Virus record (IMG/VR): IMGVR_UViG_3300021387_001709
Span: 1 to 64,000 of that record
Reading direction: 5' to 3' (one strand)
DNA: 64,000 nt
Origin: a virus
Taxonomy: Duplodnaviria > Caudoviricetes
Shown here: piece by piece, positions 2 to 7,885 of the stretch
Position numbering within the stretch: position 1 is the stretch's first letter
How the letters are laid out: each line of letters starts with the position of its first letter
Translations under genes and position numbers: made by a program
Notes under the pieces: model-generated
Told to the model about the DNA's origin: nothing
The model's input: only the letters and a program-made list of their open reading frames with translations
Databases searched by the model: none

Positions 2-106
2 ACTTCAGATAAAATCCATCAAAACCAAGAAGTTCATAGTATTCGTGGTGTCTGCATTACTATCAAAGCTACTGCTTACAAGAACCCCCCCCCCGTATCC
101 TGGTAA
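2..106 (+). CDS. Partial C5-MTase TRD-like mini-ORF, with a C10 tract at 85-94
   Basis: Frame 2 reads ..QNQEVHSIRGVCITIKATAYKNPPP, like the neighbouring TRD-like ORFs; 5' end lies outside the window. Confidence 0.5.
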   Translation, partial: TSDKIHQNQEVHSIRGVCITIKATAYKNPPPVSW

Positions 107-121
107 TGGAGGCGATGCCCG

Positions 122-310
122 ATGAAGAAGCGACAAATAACAGCAATATTTAAAAATATGGGAAGTTCCAATGAGGATAGAATTCCATCATGCACGTTTA
201 GCGATGTAGCCGTCACAATACTTGCTAGAGATTACAAAGGATGGGGTAATCATTTTGCCAATGGGGTTATTGAGGTTGAAAAACTTGAAACTTATGGAAA
301 AAATCAGTAG
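122..310 (+). CDS. C5-MTase TRD-like mini-ORF
   Basis: DVAVTILARDYKG resembles the variable-region TL.ARDYKG motif of phage C5 methyltransferases; GGAGG upstream. Confidence 0.55.
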   Translation: MKKRQITAIFKNMGSSNEDRIPSCTFSDVAVTILARDYKGWGNHFANGVIEVEKLETYGKNQ

Positions 311-464
311 TATTTTTATCGGCAATATTTACGGACATAAAGACGCTTATGCCGGCGCAGTGTTTGGAGTGCAAGGACTGTGTCCGGCAATCAAGGCGAA
401 TTCTGGTGGGAATACTCAGCCGATGATAGTGGTAGGGTATGAGAACAATGAAAGAACTAATTAG
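285..464 (+). CDS. C5-MTase TRD-like mini-ORF
   Basis: GNIYG..AYAGAVFGVQGLCPAIKANSGGNTQPMI; paralog of 439..642; TTG start after GAGGT. Confidence 0.55.
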   Translation: MKLMEKISSIFIGNIYGHKDAYAGAVFGVQGLCPAIKANSGGNTQPMIVVGYENNERTN

Positions 465-642
465 ATTAGGTAATATATACGGTTTCACCGGTGGATCGTA
501 TGCCGGCAATGTATATTCTCATCGCGGATTATGTCCTGCGATTAACACTGCCGGCGGTGGTAACCGTGAACCGATAGTAATTATTAAAGAGATAGACGAT
601 GAAGCTAATCAAACAAATAATATGCGCGTCGAGAGGACGTAA
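439..642 (+). CDS. C5-MTase TRD-like mini-ORF
   Basis: GNVYSHRGLCPAINTAGGGNREPIV matches the VYS..G..PTL.T..GGN..P.I TRD pattern. Confidence 0.6.
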   Translation: MRTMKELIRLGNIYGFTGGSYAGNVYSHRGLCPAINTAGGGNREPIVIIKEIDDEANQTNNMRVERT

Positions 643-787
643 CCCGGATAATCCGAATGATAGAAGTAAAACAGGCGGAGGTATTCTTGTGCAGCGCCTG
701 GAACTTGCTGAGGATGAACTTGCCCATACAATAACTTCGGTAGCTAAGGATAATTGGGTGTTTGAGATATATGGAAGAGAAGAGTGA
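599..787 (+). CDS. C5-MTase TRD-like mini-ORF
   Basis: ASRGRNPDNP..QRLE..AHTITSVAKDN, a pattern recognised from phage C5-MTase variable regions. Confidence 0.6.
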   Translation: MKLIKQIICASRGRNPDNPNDRSKTGGGILVQRLELAEDELAHTITSVAKDNWVFEIYGREE

Positions 788-968
788 AAACAAACCAATG
801 CCGATTTGTCTCGGCGGAATCGGCGAAATTAATTATGGCAAACAGTACCGCCTCGGTAATCGTGTTTATGACAGCAGAAGTGTTGCTATGGCGCACTGCG
901 CTAATCCTGTCGGTAATCTCGGCGGTTATACATATTTGTATTTGGTAGTAGAGGTTAATAATGAGTAA
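771..968 (+). CDS. C5-MTase TRD-like mini-ORF
   Basis: QYRLGNRVYDSRSVA..GNLGGYTYLYLV; paralog of 1389..1592. Confidence 0.6.
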   Translation: MEEKSENKPMPICLGGIGEINYGKQYRLGNRVYDSRSVAMAHCANPVGNLGGYTYLYLVVEVNNE

Positions 969-1386
969 ACAACTTTTTAAACTTGACAACCATTTATTGT
1001 ATTTTGATTATATATTGGAATATTTTGACTTATTTCATCCGATGTTCTATGTATGTAGGGACGATAATGATGAACGCTTTTTGGTTTTGAGAATGGATTT
1101 ATGTGAGAAGGAATCATACTTGATTACCGAAATTAGTCTAAACGATTTAAATAATATGCTATTAGGGAATATCACTATAAGATCGGCATTCCTTGATCGA
1201 CCATCATTCTACGAAGTTCAATGTCCAACAGAGAACTATTTAGATGACGTAGTAACAAAACATGAAATATCGGAGTTTCCCATAGAATATTTACCGGACA
1301 AAGATTATAAATATATTTTATATGATGACGAGCATAGAGAGTATCAAAAACGAATTGCGAAAGAATTGGAGAAAACCAATAGTTAA
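961..1386 (+). CDS. Hypothetical protein inserted among the TRD-like ORFs (possibly DUF6575-like)
   Basis: 141-aa acidic ORF with RBS; family call is a tentative resemblance. Confidence 0.5.
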   Translation: MSKQLFKLDNHLLYFDYILEYFDLFHPMFYVCRDDNDERFLVLRMDLCEKESYLITEISLNDLNNMLLGNITIRSAFLDRPSFYEVQCPTENYLDDVVTKHEISEFPIEYLPDKDYKYILYDDEHREYQKRIAKELEKTNS

Positions 1387-1388
1387 TT

Positions 1389-1592
1389 ATGAAAGAAATT
1401 GGACTAATATTTTTAGGTGGTCTCGAGAGTAGTTTGTGGCTAGATAATGGCAAGAAGTTATCTCGGAATTTCCGCCAGGGATACAGAGTATATGATAGTC
1501 GAGGATTAGCTAATACGCTGCCGAGTAGTAGCATTGGCGGTCTTGGCGGCAATAGTGGATTGTATTTAGTAGTAACTAAAGAAAGGAAATAA
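1389..1592 (+). CDS. C5-MTase TRD-like mini-ORF
   Basis: FRQGYRVYDSRGLANTLPSSSIGGLGGNSGLYLV, with the TL dipeptide typical of TRDs. Confidence 0.6.
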   Translation: MKEIGLIFLGGLESSLWLDNGKKLSRNFRQGYRVYDSRGLANTLPSSSIGGLGGNSGLYLVVTKERK

Positions 1593-1596
1593 TATT

Positions 1597-1872
1597 ATGG
1601 AAGAAACTAAGTATAGATACCGAATTCGAAAACTCACGCCAAAAGAATGTTGGCGATTGATGGATATAGCCGGACCAAATGATGAGTATTTTAATAGAGC
1701 AGAACAAGTCAATTCGAATTCACAGCTCTTTAAGGAGGCCGGAAACGGTATCGTCAGATCAGTACTCATGGGGATTTTCTCGCAGCTTGATATCGCCGGT
1801 ATCCGCAAGTGGAATGATATGAGTGATGAAGAAATTGACCGTATGTTGCATTATCAAGAAATAAGTGCTTGA
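1597..1872 (+). CDS. C5 DNA methyltransferase C-terminal subunit (motifs IX-X only)
   Basis: RIRKLTPKECWRLM (motif IX) and SNSQLFKEAGNGIV (motif X); own RBS AAAGGA. Confidence 0.85.
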   Translation: MEETKYRYRIRKLTPKECWRLMDIAGPNDEYFNRAEQVNSNSQLFKEAGNGIVRSVLMGIFSQLDIAGIRKWNDMSDEEIDRMLHYQEISA

Positions 1873-3237: not shown

Positions 3238-4611
3238 TTGGCAAAGAAACAAATACCGACTCGTGTTCAAAAAATACTTATTAAAAATAATAGCAACAAA
3301 CTCGGAAAACCATATAAGCGTGATATAGAAAAATCTAATAATGACGGCATTACATATGGAGACTATTTCAATCAAATAGATGAACTGAGTTTAAAAACCA
3401 GAAATCTTTATAATGAAGCAAATTATGTTATTCGTCAGAAATTTTTTGAAACTTGCAAAGAAAAAGAAGCCGGGTTGCGAGACCATGCGGTTTGGCTAAG
3501 ATATAATGAACTCTATCCGATTTGCAGAGATCTTAATCCATATAATAAGAAACCGCTTAACGATTTTAAAACCGTCGGATGTAGCGGTATTGCACAACAT
3601 ACTCTGAAGATATTGGATAGAAATTGGAAATCATTTTTCGAATCTATTAAAGACTACAAAGAGAATCCAAATAAATATAAGAAAACACCTAAACCTCCGA
3701 GGTATATGAAGAATAATAAACGAGTTGTTGTTGAGTTAACCAGTAATGAGGTGAAAAACAAGGACGGCTACGTATTCTTTTCCTTATCTTCGTTTAAAAA
3801 TCTCAATAATACGTTTAAATTGCGAAATCCCGACGAACGTATTTATTCTGCGAGATTCGTCCCTGTCGGAACTGGTAAAAGTAAAGTTGAAGCTTATGTA
3901 TTTGAGATTATCCAGGTAGTTGATGTTCCAAATATAGAAAGCGTTCCTACCAGGAGAATTGCCGGAATTGATCTGGGAGTTAATAACTTAGCAACTATTG
4001 CAACAAACTGCGGAGTTAATCCGATTGCAATAAACGGTCGCCCATTAAAAAGTATCAATGCTTATTATAATAAGAAGCTTGCCACAATGAAATCCGAGTT
4101 GAAAAAGAAGAACGATAAAGATTGGTCAAAAAGATTAACTAATTTTACACAAAAACGAAATCGTAGGGTCGAAGATTACATTCATAAGGCTTCTGCAAAA
4201 ATTGTAAGTTGGTGCGTTGAAAATAATATCGATACTGTTGTGTGTGGTCATAACACTGATTGGAAACAGGAATCAAACATGGGAGCAACCAATAATCAGA
4301 ATTTTACATACATTCCCCATTCTAAATTGATTCAAAAAATAAAATATAAATGCGAAAACAATGGCATACGTTTTATAGAAACCGAAGAGGGTTACACCAG
4401 TGGCACGAGTTTTCTCGACGGAGAAGACCCCATCAAAGAAAATTACAATAAATCCAGAAGACTTCATCGTGGGATGTTTGTCTCAAATAGCAAAGAACTA
4501 ATCAATGCTGATGTGAATGGGGCTTATCAAATTATTAAAAAGGCATTTCCGGATGCGTATAATGTATGTGATGAATTCGGAAGACATCCTATAATTATTA
4601 ATATTGAATGA
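3238..4611 (+). CDS. tnpB: TnpB/Cas12f-like RNA-guided RuvC nuclease
   Basis: RuvC-I IAGIDLGVNNLA; VVCGHNTDWKQ in place of the canonical Glu, with ETEEGYTS (rearranged Glu clade); RuvC-III INADVNGAYQI; no Zn finger; no tnpA nearby. Confidence 0.9.
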   Translation: MAKKQIPTRVQKILIKNNSNKLGKPYKRDIEKSNNDGITYGDYFNQIDELSLKTRNLYNEANYVIRQKFFETCKEKEAGLRDHAVWLRYNELYPICRDLNPYNKKPLNDFKTVGCSGIAQHTLKILDRNWKSFFESIKDYKENPNKYKKTPKPPRYMKNNKRVVVELTSNEVKNKDGYVFFSLSSFKNLNNTFKLRNPDERIYSARFVPVGTGKSKVEAYVFEIIQVVDVPNIESVPTRRIAGIDLGVNNLATIATNCGVNPIAINGRPLKSINAYYNKKLATMKSELKKKNDKDWSKRLTNFTQKRNRRVEDYIHKASAKIVSWCVENNIDTVVCGHNTDWKQESNMGATNNQNFTYIPHSKLIQKIKYKCENNGIRFIETEEGYTSGTSFLDGEDPIKENYNKSRRLHRGMFVSNSKELINADVNGAYQIIKKAFPDAYNVCDEFGRHPIIINIE

Positions 4612-6447: not shown

Positions 6448-7885
6448 ATGTCTATGGAACGATTATCCGGCGAATACAATCGCGGTTTTACACAAGGACT
6501 GCTTGCCGTTCAGGACGTGCTCAAATACATCCAGCTGGATTTAGCCTACCACAAAAAACGACTTACCCCAAAGCTGATTGATGATCTCATGCAGTGTTGC
6601 ATAAAGAACCGAGAACGTCTTCGCGAGAGTATGAATGGATTTATTAGATATAATGGTAAAACAAATTCTTTTGAGTTCTATGAGCCGAATACAAGGAGGT
6701 AATCACAATGAATAAATCAAAATTTGCCGTAGGTGACAAGGTTGTCTGCGGCTATCCTAATGTTTTAAATCCGGCTATCGGCACGGTCATAAGAGTTACC
6801 GATAATCAGGAGGACGTGGTCGTAGATTTTGATGGATACCAAGAAACATTTGATTGCTATGGTCACAGTAAATTGCATGACATATGGTACTGTAGCCACA
6901 TTGATTTACTTACCCCAGCCATAGAACAAGACATCAAGGACAATTTGGCAATCGCCAAGTGTAAAAAGATGATGAAAGATACCGTATTAATCAATGCCGA
7001 TCAGGCAGCCAGAATAATTGCAATTCTTGAGGAGGAACACAATGAAAATCAATATTAATTCTTTCGGTGACGAACTTCAGACAATGGACATGTATCTGGG
7101 CGTAGACGATTACGTTGCCCTGTTTAAGAAACAAGTCGGATTTGGTACGCTTCTTCGTGTGTATGAGGAACTTGGCAAAATTATATCTAGTGACAAAGAT
7201 CGACTCCGTGAGTGGCTCGGCGGTGATTGGTATAAGTCAGTGATTGATACTACCAACAAAGTTGCTGATATTATCAATAGCAATAATATTACCGACAAAG
7301 AGATTCCCGACATTTATCCTCTCACTGTAGTTAGCGATCGCTACAATGGTACATACTCCGGCGGTAAATATACTGCGTGGGCGCTTTACCCCGAGGGTAT
7401 TCCGGAAGCTGTTTTTAGCGATGACAATACGTGCTGGAACTATTTCAGAACTACTCGTGATATTTATGGTCGAGGGGATACTCCCAATGAAGCAATCATC
7501 GATTTGGAAAAAAGGTCAAAGGAGAACGCAGACAATGAATGAAGAACGTCATAATGTCGTAGCCACTTGGTCCGGGCAGTACCCATGCTTGTGTAGCGGT
7601 ACCTGGACACTTACCATTGACGGTAAGGATTATACAGACCATATACCCCAGGAAATTATCAATGAACCGATGTATACATTTGGTACATATTCCCAGTGGG
7701 ATTTTGATGACGAATGGCGAGAGGAATTTGAAGATTACGAGGACGGTTTATCCTCAGTTGATTGGATAGCCGCTAATGACGAATGGTTAAGTACGATAAC
7801 CGATGATTATAACCTCAAACTCCAGATTTACTTCGCATTTAATGAGAACGATTTCCGCTACGGTAGTTGCGGCGGTTGTATATAA
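6448..7885 (+). other. Four translationally coupled hypothetical genes (6448-6702, 6708-7058, ~7042-7542, ~7535-7885)
   Basis: Each has a GGAG RBS and abutting or overlapping start and stop codons. Confidence 0.65.

Follow-up and report, generated by a model that had tools for sequence, protein, structure and literature searches.

Target recognition by C5 cytosine methyltransferases (MTases) is understood as a property of one polypeptide or of two fixed subunits at most. M.SPRI, M.Phi3TI and M.Rho11sI, together with M.H2I, are multispecific C5 MTases of Bacillus phages, and in M.H2I the target recognition domains (TRDs) are joined in one polypeptide by linkers of 2-3 residues. M.AquI and M.EcoHK31I are C5 MTases assembled from two separately encoded subunits, the split falling within or close to the variable region; the small subunit of M.EcoHK31I supplies a single motif (PMC3404938). 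M.SssI fragments split distal to the TRD ([1-304]+[304-386]) were inactive (PMC3404938), and tolerance of a break that separates the TRD from motif IX is accordingly not known.

The locus described here can be compared with both types. Like the M.H2I-type multispecific MTases, it is phage-borne and presumably serves anti-restriction, and has the same catalytic motifs and, between motifs VIII and IX, a series of TRD modules. Unlike in that type, motifs I-VIII and motifs IX-X are located on separate proteins, each TRD has its own overlapping cistron in a different frame, and cassette content varies between close relatives. Its separate ORFs for motifs I-VIII and IX-X recall M.AquI and M.EcoHK31I. 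Those enzymes have two fixed subunits and one specificity, whereas the present one would have three parts, the middle part being drawn from six or more alternatives. Nor is the variable region shared between just two subunits as in the M.AquI type, since six further TRD cistrons lie between the N-terminal (N) and C-terminal (C) subunits. We found no description of a layout with separate TRD mini-genes in the literature.

Layout of the operon

The window, that is, the whole stretch that was analysed, comprises the first 64,000 nt of a 190-kb phage record. The first 1.9 kb of this record is the distal two-thirds of a C5 cytosine methyltransferase operon. Positions 2-1872 contain seven TRD units along with a 141-aa gene of unrelated type and the motif IX-X subunit of 91 aa. 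The TRD units sit between the ORF with motif VIII and the ORF with motif IX; the first of them ends the N subunit, and the other six are ORFs of their own, 56-67 aa long. In total, nine separate ORFs are spread over three frames, compared to the single polypeptide of multispecific phage C5 MTases. The features are as follows:

2-106, + strand: end of the N subunit (N2) with a fused TRD (TRDa); TAA stop at 104-106 as sequenced
85-94, + strand: C10 homopolymer, a candidate slippage switch; leaves the TRDa core in frame 2 and its conserved tail in frame 1
94-153, + strand: alternative homologous TRDa tail in frame 1; TAA at 151-153; 32-nt overlap into the start of u122
122-310, + strand: TRD mini-gene u122 (62 aa); GGAGG 8 nt upstream of the ATG
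294-464, + strand: TRD mini-gene u294 (56 aa from the ATG at 294); frame open since 210
448-642, + strand: TRD mini-gene u448 (64 aa); alternative ATG at 439
599-787, + strand: TRD mini-gene u599 (62 aa)
771-968, + strand: TRD mini-gene u771 (65 aa)
961-1386, + strand: non-TRD gene (141 aa) inside the array; weak similarity of the DUF6575 / YokE type
1389-1592, + strand: TRD mini-gene u1389 (67 aa)
1597-1872, + strand: C subunit (91 aa), limited to motifs IX and X; AAAGGAAA upstream of the ATG

Rechecking of the coordinates placed the ORFs where an earlier note on this DNA had put them. That note had described at least seven stand-alone TRD mini-ORFs. Seven TRD units are present; the unit at 2-106 is the end of the N subunit and not free-standing, and the ORF at 961-1386 is not a TRD. 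Neighbouring ORFs overlap by 17 nt (122/294, 294/448 and 599/771), 44 nt (448/599) or 8 nt (771/961), and gaps of 2 and 4 nt separate 961-1386 from 1389 and 1389-1592 from 1597, respectively. At five successive junctions, the frame steps by +1.

The earlier note had also predicted an ORF with motifs I-VIII upstream of the window. Such an ORF exists, although not outside the record: it is found at the opposite record end (189,038-189,811) and reads in frame into position 2, with N2 spanning 189,324-189,811 before crossing the record ends. The operon begins at this other end of a circular or permuted record, where a promoter-like site and a 67-aa zinc-ribbon ORF accompany the N subunit. The in-frame join at the record ends could conceal a gap of ~137 nt relative to the related locus L005.

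Two sources of the multi-frame layout were considered and rejected. Sequencing or assembly error was dismissed because independent assemblies share the layout. Stop-codon recoding does not account for the fragmentation either: reading TAG as Gln adds only 9 codons to u122 and 2 to u294, the ORFs stay unfused, and ORFs of the early arm are hardly altered.

Catalytic subunits and TRD modules

The N part carries motifs I, VI (ENV) and VIII (QxRxR), and PF00145 matches positions 189,324-189,734 of the record (E-value of 2e-28). For comparison, the intact N subunit of L005 matches positions 2-209 of this profile (E-value of 8e-40). The claim that the 91-aa ORF holds motifs IX-X was borne out by its similarity to a PHROG DNA methyltransferase family (E-value of 1.9e-15) and to residues 438-493 of M.H2I (E-value of 7e-17). 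Its match to PF00145 positions 272-322 (E-value of 0.002) scores 18 bits, which is below the 22-bit family cut-off. The residues of motifs IX and X are invariant in an alignment of 32 relatives. Ten aa precede motif IX in the C subunit, which lacks a variable region.

Although none of the mini-ORFs had a match in Pfam or PHROG, most could be aligned to uninterrupted relatives in which the MTase is a single ORF. Five of them (u294, u448, u599, u771 and u1389) match the variable region between motifs VIII and IX of these relatives with E-values of 1e-8 to 1e-20, including 9e-10 for u294, 9e-11 for u448 and 2e-20 for u771; u599 matches 11 uninterrupted relatives there (E-value of 3e-13). Four also align with residues 247-383 of M.H2I. 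Here u1389 is 57% identical to residues 247-307 (E-value of 1e-20), followed by u771 with residues 270-307 (1e-9), u448 with residues 307-354 (5e-7) and u294 with residues 311-356 (2e-4). A 304-aa PF00145 protein (P0003) carries the u122 module fused behind motif VIII (54% identity, E-value of 3e-15). In the MTase of Dulem virus 39, the same module order is found within one 527-aa ORF, with which the N-part/TRDa reading (2-106) aligns up to residue 282. A profile search with u599 retrieved 2080 cluster representatives, fused as well as free. Both pairs of paralogues proposed earlier were recovered, at 44% identity for 294/448 (E-value of 3e-12) and 49% for 771/1389 (E-value of 2e-9). These sequence comparisons support the identification of the units as genuine TRD modules of a multispecific-type C5 methyltransferase.

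Structure-oriented searches returned no methyltransferase. A PDB sequence search with u122 and with the u599 profile gave no methyltransferase match, and for the AlphaFold2 model of u599 (pLDDT 78, three strands), Foldseek found nothing in the PDB below an E-value of 2, which is uninformative. The 141-aa gene inside the array showed no TRD homology to the variable region of the uninterrupted relatives. Its Pfam match to DUF6575 (E-value of 0.001) lies below the cut-off, accompanied by a protein atlas lead at 0.92. This gene is 94% identical in L005 (dN/dS 0.06) and absent from L004.

Conservation and proposed use of the mini-genes

This layout is conserved in many related phages: ~45 split and 27 uninterrupted forms occur among 100 related loci. 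The multi-frame arrangement is retained in L004 (96% identical) and L005 (89%), whose cassette sets differ, and also in L006, L007, L008 and L019. A metagenome scan found no relative closer than L005. Compared to L004 and L005, dN/dS is 0.03-0.21 for each unit and 0.03-0.15 for the N and C parts. The individual values are 0.08 for u122 (versus L005), 0.03-0.20 for u294, 0.20-0.21 for u448, 0.06-0.14 for u599, 0.19 for u771, 0.14 for u1389 and 0.05-0.13 for the C subunit. Together with the TRD homology to uninterrupted relatives and M.H2I, these values exclude random decay, against which the earlier note had argued. They support the view that the mini-genes are separate cistrons under purifying selection, each in its own frame.

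Three relatives bear on how the mini-genes may be used. In L029, L032 and L034, no TRD is reached before the end of the N subunit, the C ORF has at most 17 aa ahead of motif IX, and N and C are separated by four to seven TRD-like mini-genes. Since both N and C lack a TRD in these loci, only the mini-genes can supply one. The pooled pN/pS of the mini-genes of these loci is 0.22-0.31 versus L028 and L034, and 0.49 versus the more distant L032, with values of 0.16-0.20 for their N and C parts. The TRD-less N and C subunits of these three relatives, and the occurrence of module types both fused and free, favour a reading in which the TRDs act in trans. We infer that trans-acting, exchangeable TRD subunits are the best-supported reading of the mini-genes. 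With moderate confidence, we interpret the locus as the operon of a split, multispecific-type C5 MTase whose TRD subunits would be translationally coupled and act in trans.

The junctions between the mini-genes are of the ATGnnTAA overlap type, with lengths of 3n+2. An ATG was found in the short leader of 66% of 120 unique TRD-like mini-ORFs, compared to 21% of control frames (p = 3e-16), and SD-like words occurred upstream of 29% versus 16% (p = 0.007). Two observations count against the coupled, trans-acting reading: most mini-genes lack a clear Shine-Dalgarno sequence, and 24% of the TRD-like mini-ORFs, such as the L005 copy of u599, have no ATG, GTG or TTG in the leader. What the junctions have in common is an ATG close to a stop; downstream of one TRD type, this ATG often forms part of ATATATG. 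The junction sequences otherwise differ, and no conserved shift-prone sequence was found across them.

These junctions could also be taken as sites of programmed +1 frameshifting or hopping. Each shift would string a further TRD onto N, yielding nested polyproteins with motifs IX-X in trans, and the mini-ORFs would not be separate proteins. This fits the +1 step at most junctions, where the downstream frame opens a few codons before the upstream stop, as well as the fact that tandem TRDs in one chain work in uninterrupted relatives. It would also accommodate the 24% of TRD-like mini-ORFs without a canonical start codon. However, the +1 step is the automatic outcome of start/stop overlaps of 3n+2, and the junctions share no slippery or shift-prone motif. 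Shifting has no need of the roughly threefold enrichment of ATG exactly at the junctions, and hardly any full-length product would remain after five or more shifts in series. Compared to the short linkers of M.H2I, the mini-genes moreover have extra N- and C-terminal residues. Frameshifting is therefore unlikely.

Alternatively, the mini-genes could be a silent reservoir: only the TRD fused to N (or C) would be used, and the others would be stored for recombination into the expressed position. Exchange of this kind is consistent with several observations. TRDa is fused to N here and is a free mini-gene in L005, L006, L029 and L034, and L032 has a free version of the module that L004 and L005 carry on N. 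Cassette insertions and deletions terminate at junctions; those relative to L004 begin at 771 and end at ~1597, which are the start codons of a mini-gene and of C. Yet silent cassettes should drift, and every unit is under purifying selection. Neither N nor C has an expressed-site TRD in L029, L032 and L034, and the junctions are enriched for start codons. We thus consider a silent store about as improbable as frameshifting. The reservoir idea in the earlier note is supported in part, by the gain and loss of cassettes ending at mini-gene start codons and by a module that is fused to N here and free in relatives.

Under the preferred trans-acting reading, each mini-gene would be translated on its own through termination-reinitiation coupling. 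One TRD protein at a time would dock between N and C and rebuild the small domain. A single catalytic core could in this way methylate several targets and shield progeny DNA from several host restriction enzymes, while cassettes would be gained, lost, fused and split through recombination at the junctions. A parallel in logic is found in Type I HsdS subunits and hsdS shufflons, where a separate specificity subunit also serves a common catalytic subunit and alternative cassettes occupy one locus. Type I HsdS nevertheless belongs to an unrelated class (N6-adenine, gamma-class) with an unrelated fold and is switched through inversion or recombination of half-genes, whereas the mini-genes here would be co-expressed and translationally coupled.

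If this reading is true, one enzyme core could protect a phage against many restriction enzymes, which would explain how large gut and rumen phages handle many host restriction systems. Specificity from small interchangeable proteins would alter the annotation of C5 MTase genes. Such systems are easily missed because neither Pfam nor PHROG recognises the mini-ORFs and the halves resemble pseudogenes. They might also provide programmable cytosine methylation with a natural plug-in scaffold.

Interruptions of the N subunit

The earlier note had missed three features: the non-TRD nature of one ORF in the array, the break in the catalytic part after PCQ, and the frameshift of TRDa at the poly-C tract. 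The break is an 8-nt insert, TAGTGCAT, which contains a TAG, lies between the Gln and Asp codons of PCQ-DLS (motif IV) and shifts the frame. The PCQ-xLS/xFS site is uninterrupted in more than 20 relatives. L004 carries the same insert as an in-frame TAGCAT, and its contig was the only match in an IMG/VR pattern scan for TAG-containing inserts after PCQ. The ~150 nt around the insert are nearly identical to L004.

The second interruption is the C10 tract at 85-94, the only G/C run of at least 7 in the 189,811-bp genome. The frame-1 tail that follows it matches the conserved end of the TRDa type in four relatives, and C8 or C11 would restore the TRDa frame. No homopolymer tract was found at this site in the relatives compared. 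As in phasevarion repeat loci, a homopolymer inside a coding region sets the frame of the specificity-bearing part; unlike in phasevarions, C10 removes only the last strand of one TRD and not the whole enzyme.

Because the N subunit is interrupted twice, the activity of this copy is doubtful, and the methylase in this record may be off or a switch variant. Whatever holds in the relatives, there is a substantial, though less than even, chance that this copy is non-functional, whether as a null allele, an off phase variant or a consensus with errors from a mixed population. The insert stands against more than 20 uninterrupted relatives, reading its TAG as Gln does not restore the frame, and the conserved TRDa tail is out of frame. 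The genome holds no second N subunit of the same family, only a compact, different PF00145-like ORF. Against loss of function, comparison with L004 gives ~54 synonymous and 15 non-synonymous changes in the two parts of the N subunit (N1 and N2; dN/dS 0.03-0.11), which show no other lesion. The TAG overlaps a GTG (TAGTG), a possible restart codon, and as the surrounding patch is near-identical to L004, the insert may be recent. TAG is read as Gln in the late genes of the phage, and a tRNA-like gene with a CUA anticodon was seen by eye, so that the in-frame insert of L004 could be read through as Gln; ARAGORN and Rfam did not report an amber suppressor tRNA.

A further way around the insert would be ribosomal skipping. 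Peptidyl-tRNA-Gln would leave the CAA before the TAG and land on the CAT ahead of Asp, so that both the 6-nt form of L004 and the 8-nt form would yield PCQ-DLS. In both phages, a stop codon directly follows the take-off codon, which shares two of its three bases with the landing codon, and tRNA-Gln(UUG) is phage-encoded. Inserts of two lengths, out of frame with one another, coexist, with both halves of the subunit under selection. Still, the take-off and landing codons are not an exact match, only two genomes carry the insert, and its flanking patch was perhaps recently exchanged. We regard skipping as highly improbable.

The TAG insert in a catalytic motif of a TAG-recoding phage, and the sole long homopolymer lying within a TRD, are hints of switching. 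Combined with the trans-acting reading, they would give a three-part C5 MTase in which the N core and the motif IX-X subunit would be completed by any one of several co-expressed, exchangeable ~60-aa TRD proteins, with parts gated by homopolymer tracts and the TAG-bearing insert. We give about an even chance to this fuller proposal, which would make the enzyme the first Type II cytosine methylase whose specificity subunits are detachable in the manner of Type I systems. Runs of G6-G8 were also found at other TRD frame breaks, in L005, L054 and L086.

Layout of the methyltransferase operon

Plus-strand ORFs are packed in a tight chain across window positions 2-1872, as follows.

2-106, plus strand: open-ended ORF
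starts at 122, 294, 448, 599, 771 and 1389, plus strand: six ORFs of 56-67 aa (u122, u294, u448, u599, u771 and u1389)
961-1386, plus strand: 141-aa ORF
1597-1872, plus strand: 91-aa ORF

Adjacent ORFs in the array overlap by 17, 17, 44, 17 and 8 nt and are elsewhere separated by gaps of 2-4 nt, and the reading frame shifts by +1 at five junctions in succession. Window base 1 is the first base of the 189,811-bp IMG/VR record (G000), which is rated 98% complete. The earlier note had expected the C5 methyltransferase motifs I-VIII upstream of the window; such an ORF does exist, but within the same record. It occupies the final 0.8 kb of G000, and its frame continues unbroken from the record end to window position 2. 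This in-frame join implies that the genome is circular or permuted and that the assembly was cut within the methyltransferase operon. The join is 137 nt shorter than in L005, a locus of a related phage, which may reflect either a genuine in-frame deletion fusing a target recognition domain (TRD) to the motif I-VIII (N) subunit or a small assembly gap.

Upstream of the N subunit is a promoter-like site (G000 188,745-188,773). Immediately 5' of the subunit is a conserved 67-aa zinc-ribbon ORF (G000 188,823-189,026; L002:4824-5027) that is kept in the related loci L004 and L005, has four cysteines and weakly matches a Cas12f1-like TNB domain (E-value of 8e-4). We found no convincing terminator inside the TRD array. 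Directly downstream of the operon is a TnpB-like 457-aa ORF (window 3238-4611). No second N subunit of the same family was found in G000. A compact, different C5-methylase-like ORF of 233 aa (G000 184,254-184,955; L109:1477-2178) matches PF00145 over positions 1-126 (E-value of 1e-6), with atypical motifs and without a TRD array. Elsewhere, G000 186,688-187,929 (L002:2689-3930) encodes a predicted phage PARP-like ADP-ribosyltransferase of 413 aa, in which a WGR domain (PF05406) accompanies a PARP catalytic domain (PF00644).

Identity and conservation of the mini-ORFs

When aligned with 27 uninterrupted relatives, five mini-ORFs (u294, u448, u599, u771 and u1389) fall in the stretch that separates motif VIII from motif IX, with E-values of 1e-8 to 1e-20. 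The match of u122 to these relatives is marginal; a 304-aa PF00145 protein carries its module fused straight behind motif VIII. Matches were also found to M.H2I, a characterised multispecific enzyme of Bacillus phage H2. Residues 247-307 of M.H2I are 57% identical to u1389, residues 270-383 are matched by u771, u448 and u294, and residues 438-493 by the 91-aa ORF, in agreement with the earlier assignment of this ORF as the motif IX-X (C) subunit. The relative in Dulem virus 39 is a single 527-aa ORF with identical module order. By homology, the mini-ORF units are TRDs. The earlier proposal of one TRD per small ORF holds for all six mini-genes but not for ORF 961-1386, which lacks TRD homology and weakly resembles DUF6575 or YokE. 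Both paralogous pairs previously named are borne out by sequence comparison.

Every mini-ORF in its own frame has a dN/dS of 0.03-0.21 (Nei-Gojobori, versus L004 and L005), a range that they share with the N and C parts. The N parts of L004 and L005, both from other samples, are 96% and 89% identical to that of G000, respectively; these loci share the multi-frame layout with differing cassette (TRD unit) sets. The same layout in relatives from other samples rules out an assembly artefact. The split layout also occurs in the more distant loci L006-L008, L019, L028, L029, L032 and L034. Random decay, against which the earlier note had also argued, is excluded by this constraint and conservation. 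Among about 100 related loci, ~45 are split versus 27 uninterrupted. A profile search with the u599 type retrieved 2080 cluster representatives, and ~10 of the best 150 were at most 90 aa.

Junctions, translation and proposed action in trans

Family-wide, junctions are ATGnnTAA-type start/stop overlaps of 8, 11, 14, 17 nt and so on, and these lengths alone account for the +1 frame step. We compared 120 unique TRD-like mini-ORFs with control frames. An ATG within a short leader was present in 66% versus 21% (p = 3e-16), upstream SD-like words were modestly enriched (29% versus 16%), and 24% of the mini-ORFs lacked a canonical start codon. No common slippery motif was found at the junctions. This pattern fits termination-reinitiation coupling better than frameshifting.

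The C10 tract at window 85-94 is the sole G/C run of at least 7 in the genome. On its 3' side, the conserved end of the fused TRD type lies in frame 1, which differs from the frame of the TRD core; a C8 or C11 tract would restore the frame. G6-G8 runs also lie within TRD coding sequence of relatives (L054:3863-3925; L086:4880-4940; L005:4664-4680 and 6770-6800), and those of L005 coincide exactly with the frame change of two cassettes.

In L029, L032 and L034, the N subunit ends ahead of any TRD and no more than 17 residues separate the start of the C ORF from motif IX, so all TRDs there are mini-genes. These mini-genes are constrained, with a pooled pN/pS of 0.22-0.31 versus L028 and L034, and 0.49 versus the more distant L032. 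The TRD type fused to N in G000 is free in L005, L006, L029 and L034, and L032 has a free copy of the type that L004 and L005 carry fused to N. Cassette indels between G000 and L004 start at 771 and end near 1597, both at start codons. From these gene layouts, we infer that the mini-proteins would act in trans. The L029 locus also holds a natural two-cassette fusion, a 118-aa ORF with two u294-type TRDs (L029:5184-5540), and a TSDKIHQ-type cassette spread over two frames.

Homology links the system to the multispecific Bacillus-phage enzymes, but it lacks the single polypeptide that defines them. In that it would be built from separate chains it can be likened to M.AquI and M.EcoHK31I (PMC3404938), and its logic is similar to that of Type I HsdS subunits. 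M.SssI is reported not to have withstood being split distal to the TRD (PMC3404938), which calls for caution with a three-part model. A full-text literature search turned up no account of C5 TRD genes that stand alone.

Motif IV insert and TAG recoding

Eight additional bases, TAGTGCAT, separate the Gln codon of PCQ from the Asp codon of DLS in G000, whereas L004 carries an in-frame TAGCAT at the same site; PCQ-DLS is uninterrupted in all other relatives. The G000 insert leaves motif IV out of frame, and its TAG overlaps a GTG. Both halves of the N subunit flanking it are strongly constrained versus L004. A patch of ~150 nt around the insert is nearly identical between G000 and L004, from which the insert may be recent.

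The late minus-strand genes of the phage read TAG as Gln, while early-arm plus-strand ORFs are unchanged by this recoding. With TAG as Gln, minus-strand ORFs in window 42000-64000 extend to 542, 589, 1221 and >1690 aa, and each of them contains 5-11 TAGs in frame. The recoding is of code-15 type and limited to late genes. A minus-strand tRNA-like gene with a CUA anticodon (loop CUCUAAC; G000 112,930-113,001; L111:131-202) has a 7-bp acceptor stem and a 5-bp anticodon stem; ARAGORN and Rfam did not report it. Given the late reading of TAG and this gene, the L004 form of the insert could be read through late in infection. In another relative, the N subunit (L006:2-1561; also L031) holds an intein at the catalytic Cys of PCQ (PF14890, E-value of 6e-13, plus a weak LAGLIDADG match), two codons 5' of the G000/L004 insert.
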